From contig CAVUWV010000010.1 in the NCBI GenBank assembly GCA_963745075.1, positions 96,001 through 160,000 of the forward strand: a DNA stretch of 64,000 nucleotides, written 5' to 3'. A program made the translations under genes and the position numbers. The notes below the pieces were generated by a model. It did no database searches, was not told the origin of the DNA, and worked only from the letters and a program-made list of their open reading frames with translations. This stretch comes from Candidatus Hydrogenedentota bacterium (GTDB lineage Bacteria; Hydrogenedentota; Hydrogenedentia; Hydrogenedentales; SLHB01). Positions 3,962-51,878 of the stretch are shown here, one piece after another (within the stretch, counting starts at the first letter, position 1; each line of letters starts with the position of its first letter).

Positions 3962-4020
3962 AGCCTATTAACCCCAGTTTCGTGACCGTAATGTGAGTGC
4001 CTCTCGTTCATGAATATGCA

Positions 4021-5070: not shown

Positions 5071-5247
5071 GGTTTCCCCCGTTGATGATGGCGGAGACTC
5101 CGCGCATTCACTCGAGTTGCAGGATAGAAAACGGTGTACAAAGCTAACGCCCTCCAGTTGCTGCGTCGGCCATGCCTTCGGCTCAGGGCCGACGTTATCT
5201 TGTTCCGGTAACCTCTGAATTCAGGCGTGTCCGGGAACGAATTGAAG

Positions 5248-6233
5248 TTAAACGACGGATCCAGCAACTCCTTCGCGATGACGGCTCCGATTTCGTACTT
5301 GGATAAACACAAAATACAGGGTCCCGGCCAGAATGGCTTTTCCGATATCTCCGGTCAGTAATCCTGTGCTAAACCGCAGTGGACTTTGAAGCAGGTATTC
5401 CAGGCTGGGAAAGAGACCTTGTGACATCGCCACGTCGACAAGATGGCGCATGGAAAAAACCGCGAATGCGAAGAGTACCGTGCTCAGGATCACCCACGTT
5501 GCCAGGGAAATCAGCACCGAGCGAGTACGGCGCGGAGGCCGATCCATCCACCAAATCCAGAGCAAGGGCCAACCTAGCGACGCGATCCACATACCATACG
5601 AGAAGAACGGACCGCCCGATCCATTCAACCGTTGAACCGGCTCCGAGAAGTCCGCTGGATTCATCTGGGGCGAGGGTACAGACGCGTACGTCACCAACAG
5701 TGCGACAGTGATCAGTGCTTGGCGCGCTAGGCTCCAACGCAGAATCTGCGTCCTTCTTCCGTCGTCCAACCAGCGTTGCCAGCGAAACAACACGTACCAT
5801 GCGATGGCCACTCCCAACACCATTGCGAAACCACCGCGCACGACAAAGATCAGAAGCAGCGCAACAACGTCCGATCCGGTCACGGTCGCTACCGCGGCTG
5901 CTCCCACTACTCCGACTGTAATCACGAGATAGACTGCCACGGAGACCATACTGACCGCCGCCAGCCGTTGTGCGACCGACAGGAGACGTTCTCCGCGATG
6001 AACGGCCCCGAGGAAGTCGCGCAACGCGCGCGGATCGCCAAAATGCTCCCGCGTCAGAAGCACCACGTCGGGCTGCGATAAGGACTCTTCGCCCGACAGG
6101 TACCCAATCGCCTTGTCTTCCATATGGCCGAACAACTCTTCCTGGATCTCTCATCCAGGTCGTGCGCCACACTCATTTCCCGCGCCAGATTCCTTAGCGC
6201 CGCCTCAGTTTCCGGACTCAGTTGCTTATCCAT
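5248..6233 (-). CDS. Multi-pass membrane protein with N-terminal PadR-partner domain, copy 1; -1 frameshift near 6150
   Basis: ATG at 6233 overlaps the padR stop and gives MDKQLSPETEAALRNLAREMSVAHDLDE. It then shifts into the 5248..6135 ORF (FGHMEDKAIGYLSGEE...LLTREHFGDP plus TM helices). Confidence 0.75.
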
Positions 6234-6561
6234 TGCGCGCTTCCCCGAGTTTCATGACCATGCCGTGCCAGCGTTCCCATTGCTCGAAGCCTTGGCCAAG
6301 GGCTTCGCGGCCGCCGGCGGTGATGTAGTAATACTTGCGGCGGCGCCCCGTGTCCGCCGTTTGCCATTGCGCGCGGACGAGGCCCTGCTTCTCGAGTTTG
6401 TGCAAGATGGGGTAGACCGTACCTTCCTGCCACTCGAAGAGCCCGTCCGCTTCCCGGTTGATGGCCTTGATGAGCCGATAGCCGTACGTGGCTTCCCGGG
6501 CCAGTACCGACAGCACGAGCAGGCTCGTGCTCGCGCCCACGAGTTCCTTGTCCAGTTTCAT
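6226..6561 (-). CDS. PadR-family transcriptional regulator
   Basis: 111 aa with the PadR wHTH signatures LVLSVL...YGYRLI...EGTVYPILHKLEKQGLV...RRKYYYITAGG. Confidence 0.93.
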   Translation of the reverse strand: MKLDKELVGASTSLLVLSVLAREATYGYRLIKAINREADGLFEWQEGTVYPILHKLEKQGLVRAQWQTADTGRRRKYYYITAGGREALGQGFEQWERWHGMVMKLGEARNG

Positions 6562-6573
6562 AATTGGTCCCTC

Positions 6574-6622
6574 TACTTTGGAGTTCAAGGTATAAAGTAC
6601 CATGAACCTCCAGGTATGTCAA
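6574..6622 (-). promoter_or_regulatory. sigma70-type padR promoter overlapped by two 19-bp TAC-N13-GTA candidate operators
   Basis: Minus strand TTGACA (6622-6617)-17 nt-TACTTT (6599-6594). The related imperfect palindromes are TACTTTGGAGTTCAAGGTA (6574-6592) and TACCATGAACCTCCAGGTA (6598-6616). Confidence 0.65.
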
Positions 6623-6683
6623 GCGGGAAGGCTGGAGTCTGGATGGCCTAGAACGGTTTCTCTCGTAGCCGCCACTGACCGCA

Positions 6684-6828
6684 CGTACTCGTTCTCGTAC
6701 TTCGTACTCGTACTCGGATCGTCGAGCAGGAAGAGTTGCAGTTTGGCTAATCCAACACGTCGTTTCTCCACCGCGACAAGAGATCGCATCTCGTCGAGTA
6801 CGAGTACGAGACCGAGTACGAAGTACGA
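6684..6828. repeat. Inverted pair of (GAGTAC)-unit repeat tracts
   Basis: TCGTACTTCGTACTCG (6695-6710) is the reverse complement of CGAGTACGAAGTACGA (6813-6828). Further GTACTC/GAGTAC units flank both arms. Confidence 0.75.
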
Positions 6829-6887
6829 TTGAGGGGACACGGAATAACTTAAAATGCTCAACAGTGAGCCTACAGTCTTTCTCGGGA

Positions 6888-6953
6888 GCATTTCTCACCG
6901 CACCCAGAGTTTATCGGTCCGCAAGAGGACAGCTTTTGGGCGGTGAGAAATGC
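6888..6953. repeat. 66-bp hairpin element (possible IS-end remnant or structured RNA)
   Basis: Perfect 14-bp arms GCATTTCTCACCGC / GCGGTGAGAAATGC with an internal GTCC-GCAAGA-GGAC stem. Confidence 0.6.
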
Positions 6954-7375
6954 GGACTAGGGACTCTATTCTGGCAACGGGAGACCAGCACCGGGGGCGA
7001 AGTTTGGGAGTATCGACCCCTCCGATCCTCCGCACGATCACCGCTCGCTCGTTGGGCCGAGGAACCGGTCACTCCTCACAACTCCAACCGGCACGACCTC
7101 CAGCCTCCAAAGTGCAACCCCCCGGTCCATATCTACAAGGAGAATTCTGGCCATGACAGACTACACCCGACGCGCCCGTCGTCCTCGCGAACGCCGGGAC
7201 CACCTCCTGCACCCCCCTCACCTTCAGCCTCCGCCTCAGTACACGTCTGTCATGCGCATAGGTGTACTCGTGAGCGGGCGAGTACAGCGCATTACAGCGG
7301 CTGAATCGCCGATCGGAAGTCATAAGAGGCAATCTGCAAGCAACTTATGATGTAGATAGGCCGTCTTGAGAATTC

Positions 7376-7391
7376 TGGCACGAATCGTGCT
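7376..7391 (+). promoter_or_regulatory. sigma54 (-24/-12) promoter
   Basis: TGGCACGAATCGTGCT matches TGGCAC-N5-TTGC with one mismatch and lies upstream of the receiver gene. Confidence 0.65.
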
Positions 7392-7550
7392 CTATAGGGT
7401 GCTGTGATGGCCGATAAGGGTCTGGATGGTCCTGACGGTTACTCCAAGACGGTCCTCGGAAATGGGGGATTCGGTTTCGATGCCCGACGAATTTCGGGGG
7501 ATTGACCGGCGACTCCAAGGGGGGACTTAATCGGAATGGTGGAGGCAGGC

Positions 7551-7970
7551 ATGTCGCGAATCGTAGTAATCGACGACGAACCGGTCCTGCGGCTGACCTT
7601 CCGGTTGATTCTGGAGCAAGACGGTCACGAAGTCTGGGACGCTGGAAATGGCCGAGACGGCTTGGACATATGCCGCCACGAGCGTCCAGACCTGGTCATC
7701 ACGGACATTATGATGCCGGAGCAGGAAGGCACGGAGACCATGTCCATCTTGCACGACGAATTCCCGGAATTGCCGGTAATCGTCATGTCGGGAGCGGGAA
7801 TCGTCTTCGCAGGATTAGGACCGGAAGAGAGCGAGAGCTACCGATACATCGCCAAGCCGGTCGACGGTCCGAACCTGCTCCAAGTGGTACACAGTTTGTT
7901 ACCGGATAACCAATGCCATGAACGGGAGGAATGTACGGCCAAAGGCGAGGAAAGCGAGTCAGAGCGATGA
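7551..7970 (+). CDS. Single-domain response regulator (CheY-like receiver)
   Basis: Receiver motifs IVVIDDE, VITDIMMP (phospho-Asp), VMSG and IAKP, with a GGAGG RBS before ATG 7551. Confidence 0.92.
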   Translation: MSRIVVIDDEPVLRLTFRLILEQDGHEVWDAGNGRDGLDICRHERPDLVITDIMMPEQEGTETMSILHDEFPELPVIVMSGAGIVFAGLGPEESESYRYIAKPVDGPNLLQVVHSLLPDNQCHEREECTAKGEESESER

Positions 7971-8146
7971 ACAACACCTACCTGACAGATCTGACAGACC
8001 TTTTCGACCAGCCCAAGCCTTCACATCCCACCTTTGTCACCAGGACAGCCTTGCAGCTAAGACCGATGATTGGGAGTCTTCAGCCGGCCGTTCCTCCCGT
8101 TTTGGATATATCGACATCAGATTTGGTTGGGGGGAGACATCCTTAG
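7967..8146 (+). CDS. Possible 59-aa hypothetical protein
   Basis: ATGA overlap with the receiver stop. No recognisable motif. Confidence 0.25.
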   Translation: MNNTYLTDLTDLFDQPKPSHPTFVTRTALQLRPMIGSLQPAVPPVLDISTSDLVGGRHP

Positions 8147-8182
8147 CCAATTCGGGGGAACTTGATTCCTCTGGGGGGAAGA

Positions 8183-8229
8183 GAATCCCGGCGACTTTCG
8201 GGGGAGAGACGCCGGGCTTCTCTATTTTT
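8183..8229 (+). terminator. Putative intrinsic terminator
   Basis: CCCGGCG...CGCCGGG stem followed by CTTCTCTATTTTT. Confidence 0.55.
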
Positions 8230-8254
8230 GGGCAGTCCCGCAGAAACTTAAATC

Positions 8255-8433
8255 CGAAATCCGAATATCGAAATCCGAAACAAATTCCAAATTCGAAATC
8301 CAAAATCACGCGGAAATACGTTCTATCAAACGAAGAGCGCGACGGGTACCGTAAAGGACTGCGTGCGATCTGTTTGGGACATTTCCCGTTTTGGTCATTC
8401 GAATTTGTTTCGGATTTCGATATTCGGATTTCG
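8255..8433. repeat. Element with perfect 33-bp inverted repeats built of AAATCCG-like heptamers
   Basis: CGAAATCCGAATATCGAAATCCGAAACAAATTC (8255-8287) is the reverse complement of 8401-8433. It lies between convergent genes. Confidence 0.85.
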
Positions 8434-8497
8434 TGCTTCGAATCTGAGATCCCAGCTTCGGCGCGGGCATGTTGAAATGCGATTCAGCCCCGATCCG

Positions 8498-9502
8498 TTA
8501 CTCCATCCAGGTCTCGAACACGGCTGCAATATTCTCCGCGGGGTCCCGGTTGCCCCACTCGCACTGGGCCATGACTCCGCCGTTCCCTTTGTCCAGCGCG
8601 GCCCGGACCCGCCGCACCGCCGCGCGCACCTCGTCAACCGTCCCGAACGGCAGAATGCGCTGCCGGCAGATCTCGCCCCAAAACGTGATTTTTCCCTGGA
8701 ACTGCCGCCCGATCTCTTCGATGTTCATGCAGAAGAGCTGGCTGTTCAAGGCGTCCACGCCGATCTCGATCAAGTCCGGAATGATCTCGCGGATATGCCC
8801 GTCCGAATGAAAGAAGACCCGCTTCCCGGATGACTTGATGATGTCGCAGTACTCGCGATACATCGGCTTGAAGAAGGACCGCCACAGCTCCGGATCGATC
8901 AGCAGGCTGCCCTGCGCGCCCCAATCGTCCATGAATTGGATTCCTTCGACTTCCGTGGCCGCCCACAGTTCCAGTTCGCGCAGGAAGAAACCGTGCACCA
9001 TGTCGCGCAGGGCAAACAGTTCGGCCGGTTGCACCATCAAATCCACGAGCAGATTCTCCGTGCCCCGAAGGAACTGCATCCGCTCGAAGGGCCGCACGCC
9101 CGTCCCGGTACGCGTAAAGCGATCCGACGCCCGGCAATAGGCCGTGATGCCGGAGAAATCGGCGTTGTCCAAGATTTCGTTGGGCGGCGTGAAATCCTCC
9201 AACGCCGACCACTCGGCCAGGGGTGACCGCTTCACTTCACCGCAGACTCCGGGTTCGGCGACGGTCCAGGTGCAGTCCCATTCGTCGGTGTAAGAGCCGA
9301 CCTCAGCCGGGGTGCCCGCCATGCGTGTGCAGGGCCCGTAGGGGCTGGGCGGGTTGTCAAAGTCGACGGGGAACCGCGCCAGCAGCGTTCGCAGTTCCTC
9401 CGAACGGTACCGCTCCACCCCGGCCAGCCGCCATAGGTCGCGGGGTGCCCGGTCCGGTGTATCAAAGTCTAAACAGCGGTTTACACGCTCACGTGAATTC
9501 AT
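8498..9502 (-). CDS. Uroporphyrinogen decarboxylase / MtaA-CmuA-like family protein
   Basis: Motifs MNSRERV...PDRAP, DEWDC, FLRGTENLL, DDWGAQ, FHSDG, IGVDALN and FWGEI. Confidence 0.85.
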   Translation of the reverse strand: MNSRERVNRCLDFDTPDRAPRDLWRLAGVERYRSEELRTLLARFPVDFDNPPSPYGPCTRMAGTPAEVGSYTDEWDCTWTVAEPGVCGEVKRSPLAEWSALEDFTPPNEILDNADFSGITAYCRASDRFTRTGTGVRPFERMQFLRGTENLLVDLMVQPAELFALRDMVHGFFLRELELWAATEVEGIQFMDDWGAQGSLLIDPELWRSFFKPMYREYCDIIKSSGKRVFFHSDGHIREIIPDLIEIGVDALNSQLFCMNIEEIGRQFQGKITFWGEICRQRILPFGTVDEVRAAVRRVRAALDKGNGGVMAQCEWGNRDPAENIAAVFETWME

Positions 9503-9623
9503 GGTTCCCCCCTTCAGAGACGATACCGGATTGACCCCTAATCCATCTGCGGGAAAAGTATACCATCGGAACAAAACGAGAATCCTGCGACCGGGAAATG
9601 GTACTATTTAGCGGGGGAACACC

Positions 9624-10790
9624 ATGGATTACGACGAGATTGGCGTCATGCTCGGGCAGGCACCTGCCGCTTTCCATTCGGGTGGAGATGCGGAGTCGTC
9701 GCTACGCGAGCGATTCCGCCGAACCATGTTTTTCCAGCACGTCGACCGGCGCCCGAACTTCGAGTTTGGATATTGGGCCCGCACCATTGAGGTCTGGCAT
9801 TCCCAGGGTCTACCGGATTCTGTCGTCGATGAAGCGACAGCGTACGATTACTTCGGGATCGAGTCGTGGCCGGTGTTGAATGTCACGTCCAATCCGTTGC
9901 CATTGTACGAACGCACGGTCCTCGAAGAAACCGACGAATACGAAACCTATTGCGACGAACTCGGATGTATTGCGCGCATCAACAAGCACGGCGACCAGTC
10001 CATCCCACATTTCCTCGAGTACCCCGTCAAAGACCGCGCGACGTGGGAACCCTTCAAGGCGGCGATGGACCCGAACGCTCCGGCGCGTTGGGAGGACTTC
10101 GAGGAATCGCTCGTCACACTCAGTCGCGTCGATGCGCCCATTGGCGTGTACGGCGGCAGCATGGCGGGCGTTCCGCGCAATCTGATCGGCTTCGAGCATA
10201 TCGCCACGTTGCCCTACGAAGACCCCGCGTTTCTTACAGAGATCATCGACGCGTTTGGCGCGTGTACGGTGGCCGTACTCGAACGTGTGCTGCCGCGCAT
10301 CCAGGTCGACTTCTGCATGGGCTGGGAAGATATCTGCTTCAACATGGGACCCATCATCCCGCCGGACTTCTTTCGGGCCGTCGTCGGTCCGTGGTATCGG
10401 CGCATCGCAGACCTGCTGACGGCGCACGGCTGCTGCGTGTACACGACTGACACTGACGGCAACATTCTTCCCGTGGTAGACGCCTTTCTCGACAACGGCC
10501 TCAACACCATGTTTCCAGTCGAAGTCCACGCCGGTTCCGATCCCTGCCGACTGCGGGACGTGTATGGGAAACGCATCCGATTATGGGGCGGCGTGTGTAA
10601 GCGGAAACTGGCCCATTCCCGCGACGCCATCGACGCGGAACTGGAGCGGTTGCGTCCCTATGTGGAGCAAGGCGGATTTATCCCGGGTGTCGACCACCGT
10701 GTGCCGGCCGACGTGCCGCTCGACCTGTACAAGTACTATCTCGACCGCAAGCGCGACGTGCTGCGCGTGGGCGGCGAACCCAAATATTGA
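9624..10790 (+). CDS. Uroporphyrinogen decarboxylase / MtaA-like family protein
   Basis: Motifs RERFRRTM...VDR, WEDICFNMGP, DTDGN, WGGVCK and GGFIPGVDHRVP. Confidence 0.85.
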   Translation: MDYDEIGVMLGQAPAAFHSGGDAESSLRERFRRTMFFQHVDRRPNFEFGYWARTIEVWHSQGLPDSVVDEATAYDYFGIESWPVLNVTSNPLPLYERTVLEETDEYETYCDELGCIARINKHGDQSIPHFLEYPVKDRATWEPFKAAMDPNAPARWEDFEESLVTLSRVDAPIGVYGGSMAGVPRNLIGFEHIATLPYEDPAFLTEIIDAFGACTVAVLERVLPRIQVDFCMGWEDICFNMGPIIPPDFFRAVVGPWYRRIADLLTAHGCCVYTTDTDGNILPVVDAFLDNGLNTMFPVEVHAGSDPCRLRDVYGKRIRLWGGVCKRKLAHSRDAIDAELERLRPYVEQGGFIPGVDHRVPADVPLDLYKYYLDRKRDVLRVGGEPKY

Positions 10791-11872
10791 GCGAAATTAT
10801 GAACGGCATCGAACGCATATCGAACATTCTCCGACGCAAACCGGTGGACCGGATCGGTTTGTTCGAACACTTCTGGGGCGACACGCAGAAGAAGTGGTCC
10901 GGGGAAGGCCATCTCGCGCCGGACGAATCGTTGGAGGAGCACTTCGGATTCGACATGCAGTTGTGCTGGCCGTTCAACATGACCGCCAACCTCGATCACG
11001 AACCCGAGGTGCTGGAGGAAACCGAAGAGACCATCCTCACGCGTGACGGAAATGGCGCCGTGCTGCGGCGGCATAAACTGCACGACGCCACTCCCGAGCA
11101 TATTGATTTCCTCGTCAAGGATCGGGCGGCCTGGGAGGAGCATATCAAACCCTATCTCGAACCCGAACGGGCACGCATCGATTTCGCCGCCTATCGCAAG
11201 GCCCGATGTGAAGCGGAGCACCGTGGCCGTTTCTTTGGGTGGTCGGGCGTCAATGTTTTCGAGTTGATGCATCCCGTTTGCGGGCACGAACACATGCTCG
11301 TGGGCATGGCGGTGGATCCGGACTGGATTCGGGATATGGTTGATACCTACGCAAACCTCACCGTCTCCCTCATGGAGATCCTCTTCGCCGAGGAAGGGTA
11401 CCCCGACGGCCTTTGGTTCTACGAAGATATGGGGTTTAAGAAACGATCCTTCTTTTCGCTGGATATGTACCGGGAAATCATCCAGCCCGGCCACCGCCGG
11501 ACCATCGACTTCGCCAAGAGCCACGGGTTACCGGTCATCATGCATTCCTGCGGCTACGTCGCGCCCCTAATTCCGGGGATGTTGGAGTCCGGCATCGACT
11601 GCCTCCAGGTCATCGAGGTCAAAGCCGGGATGGACCTCCTGGAACTCTACCGGGCCTACGGCGACCGGCTTTCGTTTATGGGCGGAATCGACGTTCGCGT
11701 CCTCTATACCAACGACCGGGAGCAAATCGAGGCCGAACTGGCCGCGAAGATTCCGGCCGTTAAGGAGCACTACGGATACGTGTTGCATTCGGACCACTCC
11801 ATCCCCGATCAAGTCGACTATGAGAGCTACCGGTTTTTTGTTGACCGGGGGATGGAAATCGGACGATACTAG
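10787..11872 (+). CDS. Uroporphyrinogen decarboxylase / MtaA-like family protein (retains HxC)
   Basis: Motifs ERISNIL...PVDRI, YEDMGF, MHSCG, MGGID and SDHSIP. The start could be TTG 10787 or ATG 10799. Confidence 0.85.
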   Translation: MSEIMNGIERISNILRRKPVDRIGLFEHFWGDTQKKWSGEGHLAPDESLEEHFGFDMQLCWPFNMTANLDHEPEVLEETEETILTRDGNGAVLRRHKLHDATPEHIDFLVKDRAAWEEHIKPYLEPERARIDFAAYRKARCEAEHRGRFFGWSGVNVFELMHPVCGHEHMLVGMAVDPDWIRDMVDTYANLTVSLMEILFAEEGYPDGLWFYEDMGFKKRSFFSLDMYREIIQPGHRRTIDFAKSHGLPVIMHSCGYVAPLIPGMLESGIDCLQVIEVKAGMDLLELYRAYGDRLSFMGGIDVRVLYTNDREQIEAELAAKIPAVKEHYGYVLHSDHSIPDQVDYESYRFFVDRGMEIGRY

Positions 11873-11905
11873 ATAGCACTGTATATGGGAAGAGAGGGAG
11901 ATGCC

Positions 11906-12574
11906 ATGGAAGAGATTCTGAAGAACATCGCAACGTGTATCGAGCGGGGCAAGGTCAATGCCGCGTCGCCGTATCCGCCGGACTTGAAGGGGCAGGACGG
12001 CGCCGACGAGTTGACGAAAGCCGCGCTGGACATGGGAATCGATCCCAATGACGTGCTTGCCCAAGGCCTCGTCGTCGGCATGAATGCGATCGGCCGGAAG
12101 TTCAGCGAAAACAAGGTGTTCGTGCCCGATCTGCTCATGGCTTCCAAGGCCATGCAGGCCGCCATGGCACACCTGAAGCCCTTCTTCGAATCCGGCCAGG
12201 CCAAGCACCGTGGATCGTTTATCGTCGGCACGGTCCAGGGTGACCTGCACGATATCGGCAAGAATCTGGTCAGCATGGTTATGGAAGGCGGGGGCTGGGA
12301 AGTCATTGACCTCGGCGTTGACGTAAGCGCCGAGAAATTCGTCGACGCCCTGCGCGAACGCCCGGGAAGCGCCATCGGACTCAGCGCGTTGTTGACCACG
12401 ACTATGGTCAACATGGAGAAGACCGTAACAGCCGTACGCCAGGAATTCCCCGACACCAAGATCATCGTAGGTGGCGCCCCCCTGACCGCGGAGTTCGCAA
12501 AGAAGATCGGCGCGGACGCCTATTCGCCCGATCCGCAAGGCGCTCTGGATTATCTCGCCGGCGCGGTGGCCTGA
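11906..12574 (+). CDS. Corrinoid (B12-binding) methyl-carrier protein, MtaC-like
   Basis: Cap domain (GMNAIGRKF...FVPDLL) plus GDLHDIGKN (DxHxxG), SALLTTT and IVGGAP. Confidence 0.93.
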   Translation: MEEILKNIATCIERGKVNAASPYPPDLKGQDGADELTKAALDMGIDPNDVLAQGLVVGMNAIGRKFSENKVFVPDLLMASKAMQAAMAHLKPFFESGQAKHRGSFIVGTVQGDLHDIGKNLVSMVMEGGGWEVIDLGVDVSAEKFVDALRERPGSAIGLSALLTTTMVNMEKTVTAVRQEFPDTKIIVGGAPLTAEFAKKIGADAYSPDPQGALDYLAGAVA

Positions 12575-12621
12575 GTGCGGGTTTCCTCGTCGCGCATCGG
12601 GGGAAGCTGAGAGGGGGACTG

Positions 12622-13317
12622 GTGATGGACGGCTCCGTCGAGGAGTACGCCGTTGATTTCGCGTCCATGGGGTTGACTCCTGCCCACGTCGAGTGGGCTA
12701 TGGGCTATCCCATGGGACAGGCGCCCGATCCGCTGCCGGTATTGATCGCGGAGTTGTTGGAGGAAGCCCCTCATCAGTCAGCGGGGCGCGTGGGCGCGCG
12801 TACGCTTCCACCGGGTAGGGTACGCGTCGGGGACGATTGCCTGAGTCTGGACGGCACGGTATTTAGGACCGGCCCGCAGATTGCCGCATTGATGAGTGAC
12901 TCGGAATCCGTCGTGGTCTTTGTGGCCACGGTTGGTCGCTCGATGGATGCGTGGATCAAGGGGTACTTCGAGCGCGGCGACCCGATGCGCGGTTACGTGG
13001 CGGACACCATCGGCTCGGAAGCCGTGGAAGGGGCCGCCAACTGGTTGGAAGAACGAATCATGGACCGCGCGATCGAATCCAGCCACTACACGACCAGCCG
13101 GTTCAGCCCCGGCTTTTGCGACTGGGACGTGGACGAGCAACATCGTTTGTTTTCGTTGCTGCCGGAAGGATTCTGCGGCATACAACTCACGGATAGCGCG
13201 CTGATGCTGCCGGTCAAGTCGGTCAGCGGCGTTCTCGGCATCGGAACGGATTGCGAACGCGTGGTGACGGCTTGCAGCGTCTGCACACTGGAAACCTGCT
13301 TTCGGCGCAGGCTATAG
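12622..13317 (+). CDS. Stand-alone B12-dependent methionine synthase activation (reactivation) domain protein
   Basis: Motifs FVATVG, DTIGSEAVE, RFSPGFCDW, LMLPVKSVSG and a C-terminal CxxCxxxxC. Confidence 0.85.
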   Translation: MMDGSVEEYAVDFASMGLTPAHVEWAMGYPMGQAPDPLPVLIAELLEEAPHQSAGRVGARTLPPGRVRVGDDCLSLDGTVFRTGPQIAALMSDSESVVVFVATVGRSMDAWIKGYFERGDPMRGYVADTIGSEAVEGAANWLEERIMDRAIESSHYTTSRFSPGFCDWDVDEQHRLFSLLPEGFCGIQLTDSALMLPVKSVSGVLGIGTDCERVVTACSVCTLETCFRRRL

Positions 13318-13335
13318 ACCGCCAAATGGGGGATC

Positions 13336-14232
13336 ATGAACTCAATCCTAAATGCACTTCGGGAACGCAAGTACCTCGTCTCTGACGGGGGATGGGGAAC
13401 CTTCCTCGTGGCGGCCGGTCTGGGGCCCGGAGAATGTCCGGAACTGTGGAACGCCGATCGCCCCGACGTGGTGCGTACCATTGCATCGACCTACGCAGAA
13501 GCCGGCGCCGACATCGTCATGACCAACAGCTTCGGCGGTTCGCGCATTACACTCGAACCGTACGGCCTTGCGTCGCGCGCGTCCGAGCTGAACGAAGCGG
13601 CCGCACGACTTTCTCGGGAAGCCGTCGGCGACCGAGCGCAGGTACTCGCCTCCGTGGGGCCCACGGGCAAGATTCTCATGATGGGCGACGTGACCGAAGA
13701 AGAACTCTATGACGCCTTCAAGGAGCAAGCGGAGGCCTTGGCTCGCGGCGGTGCGGACGCATGCAGCGTGGAAACCATGACCGCCATCGACGAGGCCGCC
13801 ATCGCCGCTCGGGCGGTAAAAGAAAACACCGACCTCGAGCTGGTCTGTTCGTTTACCTTCAGCATGCGGACCGACGACGGCTACCGAACCATGATGGGCG
13901 TTTCCGTCGCGGAAATGGCGGAGGCCATGCTTGCCGCGGGGGCCGACGTGCTCGGCGTGAACTGTAGTTTGGGGCCCAAAGAAATGGTCGAGGTCGTGCG
14001 AGATCTGCATGCTGCCGCTCCCGACACGCCGATCCTCGTTCATCCCAACGCCGGTATGCCGAAGCGCGCCGATGATGGGACGGTGACCTATCCCGAGTCT
14101 CCGGAAGGTATGGCGTGCCAAGTGCCCGCCCTGGTCGCGGCTGGAGCCAGCATCCTCGGCGGCTGTTGCGGTACCGGTCCCGATCACATTCGCGCTATCG
14201 CCCGGACGGTGCGGGAGTTGGCAAACCAGTAG
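13336..14232 (+). CDS. Stand-alone homocysteine S-methyltransferase domain protein (MetH N-terminal module)
   Basis: Motifs DGGWGT, AGADIVMTNSFG, ETM and PNAGMP, with the Zn-ligand motifs GVNC and GGCCGT. Confidence 0.92.
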   Translation: MNSILNALRERKYLVSDGGWGTFLVAAGLGPGECPELWNADRPDVVRTIASTYAEAGADIVMTNSFGGSRITLEPYGLASRASELNEAAARLSREAVGDRAQVLASVGPTGKILMMGDVTEEELYDAFKEQAEALARGGADACSVETMTAIDEAAIAARAVKENTDLELVCSFTFSMRTDDGYRTMMGVSVAEMAEAMLAAGADVLGVNCSLGPKEMVEVVRDLHAAAPDTPILVHPNAGMPKRADDGTVTYPESPEGMACQVPALVAAGASILGGCCGTGPDHIRAIARTVRELANQ

Positions 14233-14245
14233 GACAAGCAATACG

Positions 14246-15613
14246 ATGAAACGTTTCGAGTCCCTGGTCGTTTCCGATCTCGCCGAACTGCACTTCGGTC
14301 GCGCGCCGAACCCCGTCCAGATCGCTCCACACGTTGTCGTTGGAGCGGGGGAGACCATTCCCGAAGTCAACTACATTCTCCCGTACAACAGCGAAGTCAG
14401 CGCGGCGACGCTCGAGAACGTCGTCGAGTTGTACCGGACGATGGCGCGTGGCGTGCTTCAACGCGCGGTGGACCTCGAAATCCCGCGTCTGATAATCGAA
14501 ATCGAACTGGTGTTCGAACTGACGGCCGAACCGGAGTGGGGGGAACGGGTTATCCGGGCAACCCGCGAGGCGATCGACGAGTTCGCAGAGCGCGGCGTTC
14601 AAGCTGCGCTGCGCACCACCGTGGCCGATATCCGCGACCGCGTACGCCCACCCCGAAACCGGACCAGCGGCGAAACGGAACTCGTCTTTGAAGCTTTTGA
14701 ACGCTGTGCTCCCTACTCCGATATTCTCTCCATCGAGTCAACCGGTGGAAAGGAAGTCTCGGACAACGCGCTGCTGCATTGCAGTGCCGGAGAACTCGTC
14801 TATGCCCTCGGCGTACTGGCGTCCAACGACATGGAGTTTCTCTGGAAACGCGTGTGCGCCATCGCTGCATCCCATGGAAAAGTTGCCGGCGGTGACGCCG
14901 CATGCGGATTCGCCAACACCGCCATGCAACTTGCCCGGAAACACATGGTTCCCACGGTGTTCGCCGCCGTGGTCCGTGCCATGGGCGCGGCACGTTCACT
15001 CGTGGCCGTCGAGTGCGGCGCGACCGGTCCCGACAAGGACTGCGCCTACGAGGGCCCGGTCCTGAAGGTCATCTCGGGTATTCCCATTGCCATGGAGGGC
15101 AAGTCCGCGGCCTGCGCCCATTCCAGCCCCCTGGGGAACGTGGCGATGGCCTGTTGCGACACGTGGAGCAACGAATCCGTACCGTACACGCAACTGTTCG
15201 GCGGCTACTCGCCGGAAGTCATGCTCGAACAGCTTTGGTACGACTGCAAACTGATGAACGAGGCGCTTCGCAGCGGGGATGCCTTGGTTCTGCGCGATTT
15301 GCTCACCCGTTCCGATACGGGAACCAGCGCGGAGGCGTTGGTGTTGGCGCCCGAGTCCTCCCTGCGGATTGCGCGTGCCATTGTGACTACTCCCGACCGG
15401 GCCGAACGGACGTGCCGTGCTGCGCTGGAAGCGCTTGCAATCATCACCGAAGCCCACCGCGCGGGAGCGCTGACCTTGCCGGACATCGAAATTCCGTGGC
15501 TTGACCGCATCCGGGAAGAGTTGGAAGCGTTTGCATCGGATGGTCCGCGTGCAGTGGAAGGTCAAACGGCCGCGCTTGCGGGGCAGTTCGTCGCGGAAGA
15601 GTACGGACTCTAA
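14246..15613 (+). CDS. mtaB: Methanol:corrinoid methyltransferase MtaB family
   Basis: 455 aa with SIESTGGKE, GDAACGFANTAM, GPDKDCAYEG, EGKSAACAHS and DTWSNES. These match MtaB motifs, including the Glu/Cys/Cys Zn ligands. Confidence 0.9.
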   Translation: MKRFESLVVSDLAELHFGRAPNPVQIAPHVVVGAGETIPEVNYILPYNSEVSAATLENVVELYRTMARGVLQRAVDLEIPRLIIEIELVFELTAEPEWGERVIRATREAIDEFAERGVQAALRTTVADIRDRVRPPRNRTSGETELVFEAFERCAPYSDILSIESTGGKEVSDNALLHCSAGELVYALGVLASNDMEFLWKRVCAIAASHGKVAGGDAACGFANTAMQLARKHMVPTVFAAVVRAMGAARSLVAVECGATGPDKDCAYEGPVLKVISGIPIAMEGKSAACAHSSPLGNVAMACCDTWSNESVPYTQLFGGYSPEVMLEQLWYDCKLMNEALRSGDALVLRDLLTRSDTGTSAEALVLAPESSLRIARAIVTTPDRAERTCRAALEALAIITEAHRAGALTLPDIEIPWLDRIREELEAFASDGPRAVEGQTAALAGQFVAEEYGL

Positions 15614-15738
15614 CCCGTATTGCCGATTGGTGCAGCAGCTCTTGGCAGGGAATTCTTCCGGAACGCCCAGATCTTTCCCCTTGCGAATTCGCGCATTTCG
15701 TGGTTAGATCGTGATAGAGGCATATGGGAGGGGTTCCT

Positions 15739-16185
15739 ATGGCTCCGTTGCGCTTTATTGATGTCCTCCGGAAGGCCGAAGCGTTCCACCGGGATCTGAG
15801 CAACTTCTACCGTTCTCGTATCGCGGAAACTCAGGACGAGCACCTTCGGGTATTGCTGGACCATCTGAGCAGGCATGAAGCGTATATCGAGCACTGCCTC
15901 GAAGAATACGAACACGGCGCATCCAGAGGCGTGCTCGATGCCTGGTTCAAGATCTCACCTAATTTCCGTGCTCTTCCACGAATGCAGCAAATGCGGGTCG
16001 GAGAAGACCTGACACGGGACGCCTTGGTCCAAATGGGGCTCGACCTTGACCGCTTTCTCATCTCCATCTACCGGGAGCTTATCGGACGGGCCATCTCGAC
16101 CCCGCTGCGCGAGGCACTTACAGACTTGCTCGATATGGAGCACCGGGAAGAAATCAGGATGATGTGCAACGCTGCGGCCGACTGA
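15739..16185 (+). CDS. Hypothetical ferritin/rubrerythrin-like helical protein
   Basis: All-helical, with a pattern of FH..L..FY, LSRHE and LLDMEHREE. A GGGAGG RBS precedes ATG 15739. Confidence 0.6.
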   Translation: MAPLRFIDVLRKAEAFHRDLSNFYRSRIAETQDEHLRVLLDHLSRHEAYIEHCLEEYEHGASRGVLDAWFKISPNFRALPRMQQMRVGEDLTRDALVQMGLDLDRFLISIYRELIGRAISTPLREALTDLLDMEHREEIRMMCNAAAD

Positions 16186-16186
16186 G

Positions 16187-16381
16187 TCAGGATTGGTGAA
16201 GGCCACAAGTGTCGGAGTGGTTGCAGCTTCCGCAGTCGTGGCCCATACCTTCCAGGAGGTCGCAGTCGTCCGGTACGTTCGGCGTATTGCGGCGCACCCA
16301 TTGCTGCACCCCGACCCACACCACGGCGATGAATACCATTCCGCCGATTCCGATTCCAAAGGTGTAAAGCAGGTGCATCAT
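16187..16381 (-). CDS. Small single-TM, Cys4 protein at the end of the rnf operon
   Basis: 64 aa: an N-terminal hydrophobic helix, then DDCDLLEGMGHDCGSCNHSDTC. It has a GAGG RBS and starts 40 bp after rnfA. Confidence 0.7.
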   Translation of the reverse strand: MMHLLYTFGIGIGGMVFIAVVWVGVQQWVRRNTPNVPDDCDLLEGMGHDCGSCNHSDTCGLHQS

Positions 16382-16420
16382 GGTACGCGACCTCATCCGG
16401 TTAGCGTCTCGACGCTTTCT

Positions 16421-17005
16421 TTACGTAGTGCCCAAGCCCGCAAATCCCATGAAGGCCATGGATAGAATGCCTGCGACCATCAACGCGATCGCAGTACCTT
16501 TCGCGACACCGGGTACATCGGCCAGGTTAAGCTGTTCCCGAATACCCGACATGATGATCAGGGCCAGCGCGAAGCCCAAGCCGGAGCCGATGCTGAATAC
16601 GACGCTCTGGGCGAAACTGTACTCCCGAAGCGTTTGAAACAAGGCGACGCCAAGAATGGCGCAGTTGGTGGTAATAAGCGGGAGATAAATCCCCAACGCG
16701 CGGAAGAGCGCGGGACTTGTCTTCTTGATGAACATCTCGACCAACTGCACGGTCGAAGCAATGACCACAATATAGGCGATAATGCGGAGGTATTCGGCGC
16801 CCGTTGCGATCAGCAATTGGTTGATCCCGTAGGTCAGTGTCGAACTGACCATCATGACGAATATGACGGCGCCTCCCATTCGCGACGCAGTATCCAACTT
16901 TCCGGATACCCCGAGAAACGGACAGATGCCGAGGAATACGGCCAACACCAGGTTATTGATGAGGAGCGAGTCGATAAAGATAAACGAGAGGGATGCCGTA
17001 TTCAC
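16421..17005 (-). CDS. rnfA: Rnf complex subunit A
   Basis: Motifs NNLVL..FLGICPFLG, LGIYLPLITTNCAILG and MAFMGF. Confidence 0.95.
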   Translation of the reverse strand: MNTASLSFIFIDSLLINNLVLAVFLGICPFLGVSGKLDTASRMGGAVIFVMMVSSTLTYGINQLLIATGAEYLRIIAYIVVIASTVQLVEMFIKKTSPALFRALGIYLPLITTNCAILGVALFQTLREYSFAQSVVFSIGSGLGFALALIIMSGIREQLNLADVPGVAKGTAIALMVAGILSMAFMGFAGLGTT

Positions 17006-17652
17006 GATGCCTGCTCCTCTGCCGTTGCCAGGACGGCTTTCCGGTCCTTACGCTCTCGCCAAACGGCGAAGGCGAGGAGCCACGCGCCCAAGGTGAAGAA
17101 TCCGCCGCTGGGTAGGAGAAAGATCACCCAGGGCTCATAATGGGAGCCGAACAAGTGGACACCCAGGAAAGTGCCCGCGCCCAGGATCTCGCGTACACTT
17201 CCCAGGCTTAACAGCGCGAGCGAGAAGCCGAGCCCCATTCCCAACGCGTCCAAAATGGCGCGGAAAACGGTGTTCTTTGATGCGAAGGCTTCGGCACGAC
17301 CCAGGATAATGCAGTTCACCACGATAAGTGGGACGAACGGGCCCAACGCGCGGGAAACGGGGATGCTGACCGCTTGGAGGATGTAGTCCGCCGCCGTAAC
17401 AAAAGTCGAAATGATGAGAATGTACGTGGCGATGCGAACCTGTTTGGGAACGATTTTCCGAACCATCGATACGACCGTACTCGACATGACCAGGACAAAC
17501 ATCGTGGCCAACCCCATCGCGATGGCGTTTTGGACCGAGTTTGTCACTGCCAACAGGGGGCACATTCCCAGTACCTGCACAAATACCGGATTCTCTTTCC
17601 AAAGCCCGTTGAAGAGTATATCGGTTTGCGAAGATTTCGCCCCGTCGCTCAT
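17002..17652 (-). CDS. rnfE: Rnf complex subunit E
   Basis: Motifs ENPVFVQVLGMCPLLAVT and PLIVVNCIILGRAEAFASKN. Confidence 0.95.
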   Translation of the reverse strand: MSDGAKSSQTDILFNGLWKENPVFVQVLGMCPLLAVTNSVQNAIAMGLATMFVLVMSSTVVSMVRKIVPKQVRIATYILIISTFVTAADYILQAVSIPVSRALGPFVPLIVVNCIILGRAEAFASKNTVFRAILDALGMGLGFSLALLSLGSVREILGAGTFLGVHLFGSHYEPWVIFLLPSGGFFTLGAWLLAFAVWRERKDRKAVLATAEEQAS

Positions 17653-18350
17653 TGTGTGCCTGCCTTTCGAATCTCGTCCAGATGCTCCGTCACGATCGGG
17701 AGCATGGCATCCGTGCTAACGCGTATGATGTTGCCGACCGCCTTGGAAGAAATCGTTGCACCGGATATCGCGTCGATTTGCCATGGCTCGGACTTCGTCC
17801 CATGTTTTACCGTCACAATCTCATGGGCCGGCTTATCGGTTGTCGGATCTAACGCGACGTCGAGGTCGTTGAAATTGTCCAGGAACCCTGGGTCCGAAGC
17901 GATTTTCGCGCCCAGCCCGGGCGTTTCCTTGGATTCGAGCACCTTGAAGCCGTTGATGCACGCCTTGTCCGGTGAATAGCTGTAAAGCACATTGATGATA
18001 TCTTGATACCCGCGGCCGCTGGCCTCGATCGCGATGCCGGCTAGCTTCCCCGAGTCGTCGTAGCCCACGTAGATTTTCGGCAATGTGGACTTTTCATCCG
18101 GGTTTTCCGTGATGGTCCCATTCGCCAAATCGATCGCAAAGATCTTTTGCGTAGTTGCCGTTGACAGGACTTCGTTAACCGAATCCCGGATGACTTTCGC
18201 ACGATTCCGTGCGATCGCCGGACTGGCGAGTTGGAACACCGTCACAATCAATAGCCCGCAGAGCGTCGCGACCGCAGTCATGACCAGGATCATGTACGCG
18301 CTGCTCGTCTGCTTGGGCACGGGAGCGGCTTGTTCGGACGCCGCACTCAT
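17649..18350 (-). CDS. rnfG: Rnf complex subunit G (FMN-binding)
   Basis: N-terminal TM helix, ETPGLG and the flavinylation motif DAISGATISS. Confidence 0.93.
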   Translation of the reverse strand: MSAASEQAAPVPKQTSSAYMILVMTAVATLCGLLIVTVFQLASPAIARNRAKVIRDSVNEVLSTATTQKIFAIDLANGTITENPDEKSTLPKIYVGYDDSGKLAGIAIEASGRGYQDIINVLYSYSPDKACINGFKVLESKETPGLGAKIASDPGFLDNFNDLDVALDPTTDKPAHEIVTVKHGTKSEPWQIDAISGATISSKAVGNIIRVSTDAMLPIVTEHLDEIRKAGTQ

Positions 18351-19420
18351 TTCGATTCTCCCTTCTTTCGCACGCCGAAGATTCTTGGCTGCGTGAGATT
18401 ATCAATCAATGGGGTGCACGCGTTGCCGAGCAGGATGGCGTACATCGTCCCCTCGGGTAGTCCGCCTTTCAGGCGGATCACGATGGTCACCCCGCCAATC
18501 AGCGCGCCGTATATCCAGACCCCCAACGTGGTCGTCGGCGATCCCACCATATCCGAGGCCATGAACATGGCGCCCAGCATCAACCCGCCGGAAAACAGCA
18601 TGAATAACGGAGTGGGATAGACCTTGGGATCGGACAGGTAAAATGCCCCGCTGACCATCGCGGCCGTCAGCAGGATACTGACTGGTATCCGCCAGTTCAT
18701 CATTCCGCGGAACATGAGATATAGACCGCAGATCAAGATCAGGATGGATGACGTTTCACCGGTCGAGCCCGCGATTTTTCCAAAGAAGAGGTCCACCACC
18801 GCGGTCGCGTGATGGTCGAACTTCATCTGGGACAAGGGCGTGGCGCCCGAGAACCCGTCCAGCGATAGTCCCGAAAGAAACGACGGTGCGGTCTCCGGTC
18901 CCATGAACGGGAGCGACAAGGTTGCCGGATTGATCAGATGCATGAACCGGTCCGGGGACCACAAATCGGGCCAGAAACACGGGGCCCACGTGGTAATCGC
19001 GACGGGAAACGCCGCCTGAAGGAAAGCGCGCCCCACCAGCGCAGGGTTGAAGGGATTCATGCCCAATCCGCCGAAGAGTGCCTTGCCCAGTCCGATGGAA
19101 ATCACTCCGCCGACCATGGCCATCCAAAGCGGGAACGTGGGGGGCAACGTCAAGGCAAGCAGCAGTCCGGTAATCACCGCGCTGTAATCGCCGATCGTCG
19201 TTGGTTTGCCGGCCAATTTACAGAGCACATGCTCCGTCAAGATGCAGGTTCCCGTCGTCACTATGATGAGGAGCAACGCGCTTAACCCGAACGAGAAGAC
19301 GGCAAACGCCGTAACCGGCACCAGCGCGTAGACCACATTCAACATGATCGTATCCGTCCTCAGCCGCCCCTTGATATGGGGCGACGTCCGGATATCGATG
19401 GCATGGGTTCCTACACTCAT
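18347..19420 (-). CDS. rnfD: Rnf complex subunit D
   Basis: Motifs SPH, FGGLGMNPFNPALVGRAF, DGFSGATPL and GSTGETS. ATG 19420 overlaps the rnfC stop. Confidence 0.95.
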   Translation of the reverse strand: MSVGTHAIDIRTSPHIKGRLRTDTIMLNVVYALVPVTAFAVFSFGLSALLLIIVTTGTCILTEHVLCKLAGKPTTIGDYSAVITGLLLALTLPPTFPLWMAMVGGVISIGLGKALFGGLGMNPFNPALVGRAFLQAAFPVAITTWAPCFWPDLWSPDRFMHLINPATLSLPFMGPETAPSFLSGLSLDGFSGATPLSQMKFDHHATAVVDLFFGKIAGSTGETSSILILICGLYLMFRGMMNWRIPVSILLTAAMVSGAFYLSDPKVYPTPLFMLFSGGLMLGAMFMASDMVGSPTTTLGVWIYGALIGGVTIVIRLKGGLPEGTMYAILLGNACTPLIDNLTQPRIFGVRKKGESK

Positions 19421-20766
19421 GAGGGAACCTTTCTTTCGCGAGTAATCGCCTTGGCGACGCGGAAGTACTGCACCAAGGGGATGTTGGATGGACACACGAA
19501 CGAGCAACAGCCACATTCGAAACAGTCCATGAGATGGTATTCTTCGGCCATCAAGGCGTACTCCTTCTGGCGCGCCAACAGCCCCAGTTCCGAAGGATTC
19601 AGGTGCATGGGACAGGCCTCGACACAGGAAGCGCACTTGATGCATGGAAAGACGCGGCCGTTACGTATGGCCAGCGGATGATCCTTGGCGATGGCGAGAA
19701 TTCCGGTGACGCCCTTGGTAACCGGCAAATCCAGCGAACTCACGGCCGTCCCCATCATGGGGCCGCCCAGGATTACCTGGCATTCCCGCTCTTTGAACCC
19801 AACCTGGTCCATAATGAAGCGTAGCGGCGTTCCAAGTGCCATCAGATAGTTGCCCGGATTGCGGACCCCCGTCCCCGAGACGGTCACGACCCGTTCGATG
19901 AGACCTTGCCGGACCGGCAGCAACTCGCCGATCTGCGCAAGGGTTGCTACGTTGAATACCGCCACGCCCACGTCGATGGGGATTCCACCCGAGGGCACTT
20001 CTCGATTCAACAAGGCTTTGGTCAGCATCTTTTCCGCGCCCTGGGGATACTTGGCCTCGATGGCTTCGACCGTACACGGAACCCCTTCCGGGATGCCGGC
20101 ACGCATCGTTGCGACCGCGTCCATCTTGTTGGTTTCGATCCCGACGATCGCGCGTTTTGCGCCGAGCGCGCGAAGAACGATTCGTATGCCCTTGTAGATG
20201 CTGTCGACCTGCTCGAGCATCACGCGGTGGTCGGTCGTCAGGAAGGGTTCGCATTCGCACCCGTTGACGATCACCGTGTCCACCGACTTTCCTTCGGGCA
20301 GCGCGAGTTTGACGTGCGTGGGAAAGGCTGCGCCCCCCAGTCCGACCACGCCGGTTGCCTGGACCGCTTTGACCAGTTCCTGCGGGGAGAGGCTGTCGAT
20401 ATCCGTCTCCGCCCCGTACAGGATCTCCTGATTGGCGGCCTGGTATTGCTCGATAAAGATGGCAGGGGACATCGTGCCGCGGACGTCACGCGCCAAGCCG
20501 ATCTTTTCGATCCGGCCCGTGACCGGCGCGTGCATCGGAACCGAAACAAATCCACCGGGCTCGGCGATCGGCTCTCCGCGGGCGACCTCCTGGCCTTCGC
20601 GCACGATGGGTTTTGCCGGGGCGCCGGTGTGTTGAGACAAGGGAATGACTAAATGGGGCGCGAAGGGCAGCCGCCGAATCGGCTTGTCCTTGGTCAGGTC
20701 CTTACTCTCGGGAGGATGAATGCCGTGCGAAAAAGTCTTTCGCGACGTTAGCGCGGATAGCCACAT
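19417..20766 (-). CDS. rnfC: Rnf complex subunit C
   Basis: Motifs GIHPP, GLGGAAFPT, NGCECEP, KYPQGAEK and GGPMMG, with two CxxCxxCxxxCP motifs. Confidence 0.95.
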   Translation of the reverse strand: MWLSALTSRKTFSHGIHPPESKDLTKDKPIRRLPFAPHLVIPLSQHTGAPAKPIVREGQEVARGEPIAEPGGFVSVPMHAPVTGRIEKIGLARDVRGTMSPAIFIEQYQAANQEILYGAETDIDSLSPQELVKAVQATGVVGLGGAAFPTHVKLALPEGKSVDTVIVNGCECEPFLTTDHRVMLEQVDSIYKGIRIVLRALGAKRAIVGIETNKMDAVATMRAGIPEGVPCTVEAIEAKYPQGAEKMLTKALLNREVPSGGIPIDVGVAVFNVATLAQIGELLPVRQGLIERVVTVSGTGVRNPGNYLMALGTPLRFIMDQVGFKERECQVILGGPMMGTAVSSLDLPVTKGVTGILAIAKDHPLAIRNGRVFPCIKCASCVEACPMHLNPSELGLLARQKEYALMAEEYHLMDCFECGCCSFVCPSNIPLVQYFRVAKAITRERKVPS

Positions 20767-48562: not shown

Positions 48563-48586
48563 CTCACGAGATAGGAACATATTGCC

Positions 48587-51858: not shown

Positions 51859-51878
51859 TGCGACGAGGTCGTTAGTTT

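Follow-up and report, generated by a model that had tools for sequence, protein, structure and literature searches.

Several systems have been described or proposed in which the modules of the B12-dependent methionine synthase MetH are encoded separately, or in which its folate module is bypassed. Williams et al. (2022) found three separate MetH-module genes together with an MttB homologue in Electryoneota and other bacteria, and hypothesised that they synthesise methionine from an unknown methyl donor (PMC9324843). In Ruegeria pomeroyi and Phaeobacter inhibens, the genetic study of the MtgBCDE hub by Mausz et al. (2025) showed that one corrinoid protein serves both glycine betaine demethylation and methionine synthesis, together with the pterin-binding protein MtgD (PMC12478193). 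A split MetH with RamA was reported by Price et al. (PMC5764234), and for the core methionine synthases MesA–MesC, likewise described by Price et al., it has been proposed that a methyl-corrinoid protein methylates homocysteine directly, with no folate (PMC7857596). The type 1 mlp clusters in a preprint of Kountz and Balskus contain several methyltransferases of the URO-D superfamily, one corrinoid protein and no folate methyltransferase, and a link to methionine was proposed for them (PMC10418091). Here we describe a gene cluster in a 64,000-nt stretch of DNA from a Candidatus Hydrogenedentota bacterium (GenBank assembly GCA_963745075.1, contig CAVUWV010000010.1, positions 96,001 to 160,000; hereafter the window) in which the pieces of a split MetH, the methanol:corrinoid methyltransferase MtaB and three URO-D methyltransferases lie together in one operon, so that methionine is probably made there from methanol or other donors without folate.

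A seven-gene cluster of methyl-transfer proteins

A preliminary description of the window, made from the nucleotide sequence, had recognised four adjacent co-oriented genes, for a corrinoid protein, a MetH-type reactivation protein, a homocysteine methyltransferase and MtaB, and Pfam assigns all four (11885–15613) to these types. It had overlooked three URO-D genes (8498–11872), which we call uroD1, uroD2 and uroD3, and the cluster has seven genes instead of four: six tightly packed on the + strand and one divergent on the − strand (Table 1). Along the six + strand genes there is first a 4-nt overlap and then gaps of 12, 47, 18 and 13 nt. The cluster is a real and conserved feature, and its homocysteine methyltransferase, corrinoid and reactivation proteins behave as the split methionine synthase without a folate module that had been suggested.

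The homocysteine methyltransferase has the N-terminal modules of MetH as its best relatives of solved structure (E = 5e-46), and it matches the other solved types more weakly (MmuM, 5DML, E = 1e-14; betaine-homocysteine methyltransferase, BHMT, E = 2e-17). When it is aligned to Thermotoga maritima MetH (1Q7M) the positions C207, C272 and C273, which we take to be the Zn ligands, are retained, in agreement with the earlier claim of an intact Zn site. It scores 238 bits, against a cut-off of 338, on the NCBIfam model for betaine--homocysteine S-methyltransferase, presumably the Bhmt/MtgE type of S. meliloti. MtaB, which has a single copy in the genome, likewise keeps the Zn-site positions that had been claimed for it: it matches chain A of 2I2X at E = 4.5e-89 and retains E164, C220 and C269 (chain numbering), which we assume to be the ligands there. 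Its score on MtaB_Meth, the NCBIfam equivalog for methanogens, is 418.7 bits (cut-off 720).

In the corrinoid protein the motif D120-x-H122-x-x-G125 (DxHxxG) is invariant in 40 of the 40 sequences aligned. The second ATG of its open reading frame (ORF), at 11906, gives a product of 222 amino acids, the length of most orthologues, and is the likely start. All its NCBIfam scores are below cut-off; the top models are of the MtgC and pyl_corrinoid types, and MtaC models score lower than those of MtgC type (101–110 bits, cut-offs 420–450). Among the genome's PF02310 matches that we followed up, with four further matches left aside, no corrinoid protein of methyltransferase type was seen other than this carrier, MetH and a MerR/CarH-like regulator; the rest are radical S-adenosylmethionine (SAM) proteins and, within a polysaccharide locus, a B12-binding protein of 231 aa.

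The reactivation protein is a partial match to Met_synt_B12 (PF02965), covering profile positions 120–246 of 273. Its sole relative of solved structure is 1J6R (E = 1e-9), a stand-alone protein of 214 aa deposited as 'methionine synthase', which we take to be the reactivation protein TM0269 of T. maritima. The stretch R-x-S-P-G-[FY] is retained. In 18 of 20 members of the family (the window protein and 19 relatives) there is a C-terminal CxxCx4C motif, and two more cysteines are conserved, in SPG[FY]C and xCG; 1J6R has no cysteine at these two aligned positions, and its alignment ends before the tail. The cysteines may form a metal or iron-sulfur site through which electrons enter.

We lean towards reading the cluster as a modular, folate-free split methionine synthase. 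The corrinoid protein would be the methyl carrier, which MtaB would load from methanol, in place of the folate module of MetH, and which the URO-D proteins would probably load from other methyl donors. The homocysteine methyltransferase would take the methyl group from methyl-Co(III) to make methionine, as the homocysteine (Hcy) module of MetH does, and the TM0269-like protein would re-methylate oxidised Co(II) using SAM, perhaps assisted by a lone RamA/RACE activase encoded elsewhere in the genome. Given a supply of methanol or of other methylated compounds, such a hub would spare folate-bound one-carbon units, and it would be an accessory route, because the genome also encodes a full-length MetH and a methylenetetrahydrofolate reductase (MTHFR).

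Table 1. Genes of the cluster, and MetE-like genes elsewhere in the same genome (G000).
Gene or product	Position	Strand	Best evidence
uroD1, URO-D superfamily, 358 aa	8498-9574	-	Pfam URO-D, E 5.9e-12
uroD2, URO-D superfamily, 388 aa, opens + strand operon	9624-10790	+	Pfam URO-D, E 1.1e-05
uroD3, URO-D superfamily	10787-11872	+	Pfam URO-D, E 1.8e-16
Corrinoid protein, cap and Rossmann domains	11885-12574	+	Pfam B12-binding, E 1.1e-25; B12-binding_2, E 3.5e-18
Stand-alone MetH-type reactivation protein, TM0269-like	12622-13317	+	Pfam Met_synt_B12, E 2.6e-10
Stand-alone homocysteine S-methyltransferase, MetH Hcy-module type, 298 aa	13336-14232	+	Pfam S-methyl_trans, E 8e-73
MtaB, methanol:corrinoid methyltransferase, 455 aa	14246-15613	+	Pfam MtaB, E 3.9e-144
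Short MetE-like gene (PF01717)	G000:C20 (L067:8140-9210)	-	
Short MetE-like gene (PF01717)	G000:C23 (L157:3598-4590)	+	

A conserved core with a variable donor module

We surveyed 135 Hydrogenedentota genomes for the homocysteine methyltransferase. This enzyme has a match at E of 1e-40 or better in 111 of the 135 genomes, and we kept the 82 in which the best match had an identity of 49% or more and was longer than a fragment; 27 genomes with a best match of 36–47% (another paralogue) and two with fragments (G059, G122) were dropped. Around the gene in the 82 genomes we scored neighbours within 6 kb by tblastn with 21 queries (E of 1e-5 or better). A corrinoid gene lies within range in 49 of the 82, usually directly adjoining. 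The commonest third partner at these 49 loci is a URO-D gene (36 loci), and there is a reactivation gene at 13, MtaB at 10, RamA at 4, and a pterin-binding gene at 3, of which two belong to well-assembled, MetH-less genomes. In G124 there is an eleventh MtaB neighbour, at a contig end. Ten loci have neither URO-D nor MtaB nor a pterin-binding gene, and one of these, in G125, has a reactivation gene. The corrinoid protein and the homocysteine methyltransferase are the conserved core, and the donor module varies.

MtaB is absent from 26 of the 36 clusters that combine URO-D, corrinoid and homocysteine-methyltransferase genes. These include three genomes of the same genus as ours (G105–G107), which have the same cluster, with homocysteine methyltransferases 82% identical to that of the window, but without MtaB; MtaB is therefore an optional last gene and not a defining part of the cluster. 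Across the 135 genomes MtaB is present in 34, and MetH, full-length or fragmented, in 116. In a quick tree of 89 homocysteine methyltransferases, with a MetH module as outgroup, the MtaB-linked sequences fall in at least four places, and no single origin is indicated.

A comparison is offered by the genomes with no MetH match, 19 in number. We examined five well-assembled ones, of 93–100% completeness, and all five have a second, stand-alone pterin-binding gene; PF01717 is missing from four. In G084 and G088 a single cluster holds URO-D, corrinoid, homocysteine-methyltransferase and pterin-binding genes, and in G093 the stand-alone pterin-binding gene adjoins the corrinoid gene. Where the hub must be the sole methionine synthase, then, the folate module is present in all five. 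The company of the pterin-binding gene in MetH-less genomes speaks for the homocysteine methyltransferase and the carrier being genuine parts of a methionine synthase, and its co-occurrence with URO-D in G084 and G088 speaks against the URO-D protein being merely a folate module under another guise.

MtaB loci in other phyla

We also examined the neighbours within 6 kb of MtaB at 60 loci from many phyla. A corrinoid gene is found at 42 of them, URO-D at 22, a reactivation gene at 11 and RamA at 10. The homocysteine methyltransferase is a neighbour at 11 loci (8 in Hydrogenedentota and 3 in Bacteroidota). A pterin-binding second methyltransferase (MT2) is a neighbour at 9, all of them Bacillota or Clostridia-type records and mostly Acetobacterium; none of the 60 loci has both. 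The proposal that MtaB replaces the folate module fits this exclusion, but it fits less well the same-genus clusters that do without MtaB and the greater frequency of URO-D at the core loci (36 of 49). The proposal is thus partly supported: MtaB would be an optional input, among others, to a split methionine synthase that is modular and does without folate. The survey of gene neighbourhoods that the preliminary description had called for shows the gene set recurring in another phylum: the three Bacteroidota loci (L044, L052 and L056) have the same set in differing gene orders.

A second arrangement occurs in five Bacteroidales genomes that have an AraC–corrinoid–MtaB–RamA module and whose pterin-binding genes are limited to folP-like genes and MetH. 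Four of the five also encode a homocysteine methyltransferase (51–55% identical) away from this module, and in three of these four it adjoins a reactivation gene, with a corrinoid gene too in two cases, one of them fragmented. This triad of corrinoid, homocysteine-methyltransferase and reactivation genes forms a separate small operon (L152:6317-8565, and also L151 and L153; genomes G136, G138 and G135). In the only Bacteroidales genome with both on one contig, the triad is more than 1 Mb from the MtaB module. Two similar carriers thus exist there.

The URO-D proteins

The three URO-D proteins of the window are only distant relatives of one another (25–29% identical). Orthologues of uroD1 (58–73% identity) occupy the same position in related clusters, where orthologues of uroD2 (64–79%) are also found. 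The Pfam URO-D match of uroD2 has an E-value just over the cut-off, and this protein has no match among the NCBIfam models. The product of uroD3 is 361 aa long from a TTG start or 357 aa from the ATG at 10799; its gene, better conserved than any other neighbour of the corrinoid gene, ends 12 nt 5' of the corrinoid ORF. The uroD3 family is 66–76% identical across phyla, in holders that include the cultured Firmicutes Mahella australiensis and Caldicoprobacter guelmensis, and 24 orthologues show no variation at H253-S-C255 or at H334-S-D336-H337.

An AlphaFold2 model of uroD3 has a predicted local distance difference test (pLDDT) value of 91, and its fold is equally near to UroD and to Methanosarcina mazei MtaA (template modelling (TM) scores of about 0.7, 12–17% identity). 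We assign uroD3 to no subfamily, because its sequence gives no solved relative and its fold is equidistant from UroD and MtaA. We also modelled uroD3 in complex with the corrinoid protein and obtained a score of 0.73, whereas the best of three controls scored 0.00. Of 157 solved complexes, 116 reached the mark used for such models, as did 2 of 215 mismatched pairs; since our model was built from our own alignments, these counts are a rough guide here. Separate runs agreed in at least 92% of contacts, with a pLDDT of at least 90 for the partner. The modelled interface includes the DxHxxG loop of the carrier (residues 124–127) together with G197–A198. The model supports a putative binding of uroD3 to the carrier.

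Points against a folate-free split methionine synthase, and other explanations

Several observations weigh against the reading that we lean towards. Domain identities, catalytic residues, the packing of the operon and its conservation and modularity across genomes are observed, whereas four matters are inferred: which way the methyl group flows, that homocysteine accepts it, that methanol supplies it, and that the URO-D proteins act as donor enzymes. Since the genome encodes MTHFR as well as a full-length MetH, and has a pair of short MetE-like genes besides, the route is dispensable. The URO-D proteins score 36–38 bits on the NCBIfam model MtaA/CmuA (37.6 for uroD1), where the cut-off is 235; a sequence search of solved structures with uroD3 gave only a UroD, at E = 0.039; and the complex model may owe something to similarity with solved complexes of corrinoid proteins and methyltransferases. 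To these are added three patterns of gene neighbourhood, each of which bears on a different explanation of the cluster.

First, in 33 of the 82 genomes the 6 kb on either side of the homocysteine-methyltransferase gene contain no corrinoid gene, and in 16 of these the flanks extend for at least 3 kb on both sides. This would be expected if the enzyme were independent of corrinoid and used S-methylmethionine or SAM in the manner of MmuM, with the genes clustered for shared regulation and the corrinoid protein serving another acceptor. Stand-alone PF02574 enzymes with non-corrinoid donors do exist, and MmuM and BHMT are among the weaker matches of our protein. We nevertheless regard this explanation as highly improbable: the enzyme matches Hcy modules of MetH far better than it matches 5DML or BHMT, its gene is close to a corrinoid gene in the other 49 genomes, and in MetH-less genomes it clusters with corrinoid and pterin-binding proteins, that is, with the parts of a split MetH.

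Second, two related clusters (L008 and L013) have the order uroD2–uroD3–corrinoid–MtaB and no homocysteine methyltransferase, and look like a complete MtaABC-type system with a URO-D protein as MT2. In a catabolic methanol system of this kind MtaB would load the carrier, uroD3 would hand the methyl group on for oxidation, with tetrahydrofolate or some other carrier as acceptor, and the homocysteine methyltransferase would be a side branch. The invariant H253-x-C255 of uroD3 resembles the H-x-C motif of MtaA, the modelled complex with the carrier passes, MTHFR is encoded in the genome and an Rnf operon lies just downstream; all of these are consistent with such a system, and an MtaA of URO-D type has been reported for non-methanogens such as Desulfofundulus kuznetsovii (PMC10907483). 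Even so, we judge it unlikely. If the URO-D protein were MT2, the 26 clusters in which MtaB is absent, those of the same genus among them, would have no donor enzyme at all. URO-D and pterin-binding genes occur in one cluster in MetH-less genomes, the low MtaA/CmuA scores count here too, and a search of the genome did not find CdhC.

Third, among orthologues of uroD3 in metagenomes the corrinoid gene lies within 6 kb at only 22 of 80 loci, and at 16 of the 52 loci with at least 2.5 kb of downstream sequence, which makes the dependence of uroD3 on a corrinoid protein insecure. We picked 14 of the 58 corrinoid-less loci for full flanks, and in 7 of these 14 there is a glycoside-hydrolase gene within 4 kb (GH4, GH10, GH13, GH43, GH130, fucosidase and apiosidase-like). 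As a lead, this neighbourhood points to methylated sugars. The hub could then be an anaerobic machine for the methyl groups of plant polysaccharides, in which the uroD3 family would O-demethylate sugars (4-O-methyl-glucuronate would be a candidate substrate), the methyl group would be parked on the corrinoid protein, and it would leave as methionine or, by reversal of MtaB, as methanol; we hold this to be quite unlikely.

A demethylation machine in the more general sense, in which the URO-D proteins strip methyl groups that exit as methanol through reversed MtaB, or as methionine, corresponds to the methyl-disposal route that the preliminary description had allowed for, and seems to us very unlikely. 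In its favour are the same glycoside-hydrolase neighbours, together with our own estimate that bulk demethylation would call for a larger sink than methionine demand by itself seems to offer, and the half-reaction of MtaB is near equilibrium. To our knowledge, however, no reverse MtaB reaction has been described. MtaB is absent from most of the clusters that combine URO-D, corrinoid and homocysteine-methyltransferase genes, and the AraC–corrinoid–MtaB–RamA modules of Bacteroidales have no URO-D, so that methanol as donor is the simpler reading there.

Genomic context

The genome that holds the window (G000:C10:96001-160000) is 6.8 Mb long in 36 contigs and is estimated to be 89.7% complete. 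The search for metH, metE and MeTr genes that the preliminary description had proposed turned up a 1239-aa MetH in which all five domains are present, on contig C11, and the two short MetE-like genes, of which the one on C23 adjoins an esterase (BD-FAE) gene and a heparinase-like gene. At this level of completeness, the only PF00809 genes found were that of the full-length MetH and folP (in the order ftsH–folP–glmM), and there was no match to the MttB family (PF06253). The earlier statement that neither a pterin-binding nor a RACE gene is present holds for the four-gene stretch, but the genome does have one RamA/RACE activase outside the cluster, on contig C20. A Wood–Ljungdahl reading of this genome was set aside: CdhC was not found, and Fhs and FolD were not searched for.

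An Rfam scan of positions 6500–17000 gave no match at E up to 1, and hence no riboswitch or RNA leader. Promoter-like sites (4, with 3.3 expected from shuffled sequence) and terminator-like sites (9, with 8.4 expected) between 7000 and 17000 are at the level of the shuffles, and so these scans are uninformative about the ends of the operon. A lone response-regulator receiver gene (7536–7970) lies just upstream of the cluster, and beyond it five successive ORFs of 146–349 aa (2893–7304) have no Pfam match at E of 1e-5 or better.

Downstream, and convergent to the operon, is an Rnf set on the − strand (16421–20766 and 25918–26832; Rnf-Nqr subunits, FMN_bind, RnfD, RnfC and an iron-sulfur RnfB-like protein); an Rnf fragment is also found 3' of MtaB in the related locus L013. 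Between its two parts, at 20874–25853 (−), is an ORF of 1659 aa that fuses POR_N, PFOR_II, POR, several Fer4 and TPP_enzyme_C domains, a very long fusion resembling pyruvate:ferredoxin oxidoreductase (PFOR). From the Rnf and PFOR-like genes the host looks anaerobic. Further along are two large BACON_2 proteins (27141–33885, −): a 1351-aa protein in which BACON_2 occurs four times, and an 862-aa protein that combines BACON_2 with VWA. Beyond them is an exopolysaccharide/exosortase locus (47195–63019, +) with Poly_export, an AAA_31 protein of chain-length type, WecG, long TPR proteins, the exosortase EpsH with DUF3485, Polysacc_synt_3 and a GT4 glycosyltransferase.

Implications

The pattern is modular: one carrier and one homocysteine methyltransferase, with donor enzymes that can be swapped. 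If our reading is right, anaerobes of the Hydrogenedentota and Bacteroidales that degrade polysaccharides and are not methylotrophs, methanogens or acetogens would channel methanol, released from pectin and other methylated compounds, straight into methionine and SAM. Carbon turnover would thereby gain a further B12-dependent connection to the supply of methionine. An MtaB gene in a metagenome would then cease to be a marker of methylotrophy alone, and a large, very conserved and so far unassigned URO-D family would stand out as a set of candidate demethylases. If instead the polysaccharide interpretation were true, fermenters without the Wood–Ljungdahl pathway would have a route for sugar demethylation.

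Comparison with known systems

Of the features of MetH (EC 2.1.1.13), the proteins of the window have PF02574 with its three cysteines and the B12 cap and Rossmann domains with DxHxxG. The reactivation domain PF02965 may be represented by the partial match noted above (positions 120–246 of 273, E = 2.6e-10), whereas the PF00809 pterin-binding module is missing from the cluster and three genes take the place of a single polypeptide. A stand-alone reactivation protein is also a feature of T. maritima, where we take TM0268 with its separate reactivation protein TM0269 to be a split MetH. In Thermotoga, however, a single chain of MetH comprises the Hcy, folate and B12 modules, and the reactivation protein of the window has added conserved cysteines.

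With MtaABC systems (2I2X; Acetobacterium L039) the cluster shares an MtaB with the E/C/C positions beside a corrinoid protein of cap-plus-Rossmann type. In methanogens MtaA methylates coenzyme M. The order in Acetobacterium is MtaB, MtaC, pterin-binding MtaA, and the window has the homocysteine methyltransferase in the position of the latter; it has no pterin-binding MT2, and none of its URO-D proteins scores above 38 bits on MtaA/CmuA, where 235 is the cut-off.

The logic of passing a methyl group from a methyl-corrinoid protein to homocysteine without folate is shared with MesA–MesC, although the two PF01717 genes of our genome are outside the cluster. The several URO-D proteins, single corrinoid protein and absence of a folate methyltransferase are as in the type 1 mlp clusters. 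Mlps are more than 25% identical to coenzyme M methyltransferases and have His-Cys-Cys Zn ligands, whereas the URO-D proteins of the window match MtaA models weakly; the third ligand is a Cys in Mlps, whereas uroD3, which has H-x-C, carries H/D residues at the third site. RamA is within the type 1 clusters but on another contig in our genome, and those clusters contain no homocysteine methyltransferase, MtaB or MetH-type reactivation protein, all of which are present here.

In MtgBCDE, likewise, a catabolic donor methyltransferase shares its corrinoid protein with a homocysteine module encoded on its own (MtgE), and there is a RamA-like activase encoded apart. We liken these separate homocysteine and corrinoid modules to ours by module type and not by orthology. 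The pterin-binding MtgD is essential for both functions of that hub, whereas our cluster has no pterin-binding partner. MtgBCDE is found in aerobes, replaces MetH and has a donor of the MttB family; our host looks anaerobic, keeps MetH and has no PF06253 match, and its reactivation protein is of the MetH/TM0269 type, unlike that of MtgBCDE.

Closest in logic is the cluster of Williams et al.: three of the four MetH modules are separate, the folate module is replaced by another methyltransferase, and a normal MetH is also encoded. The donor there is a non-pyrrolysine member of the MttB family, and here it would be MtaB and the three URO-D proteins; both systems are known from genes alone. A search of the full-text literature found no paper in which a homocysteine methyltransferase is supplied by MtaB or by URO-D proteins, although the supplements of Williams et al., which lay outside that search, may list related clusters. 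The principle of a donor methyltransferase feeding a split methionine synthase is already published for MttB and MtgB donors (Williams et al., 2022; Mausz et al., 2025), and the version with MtaB and URO-D proteins is a new variant of it.

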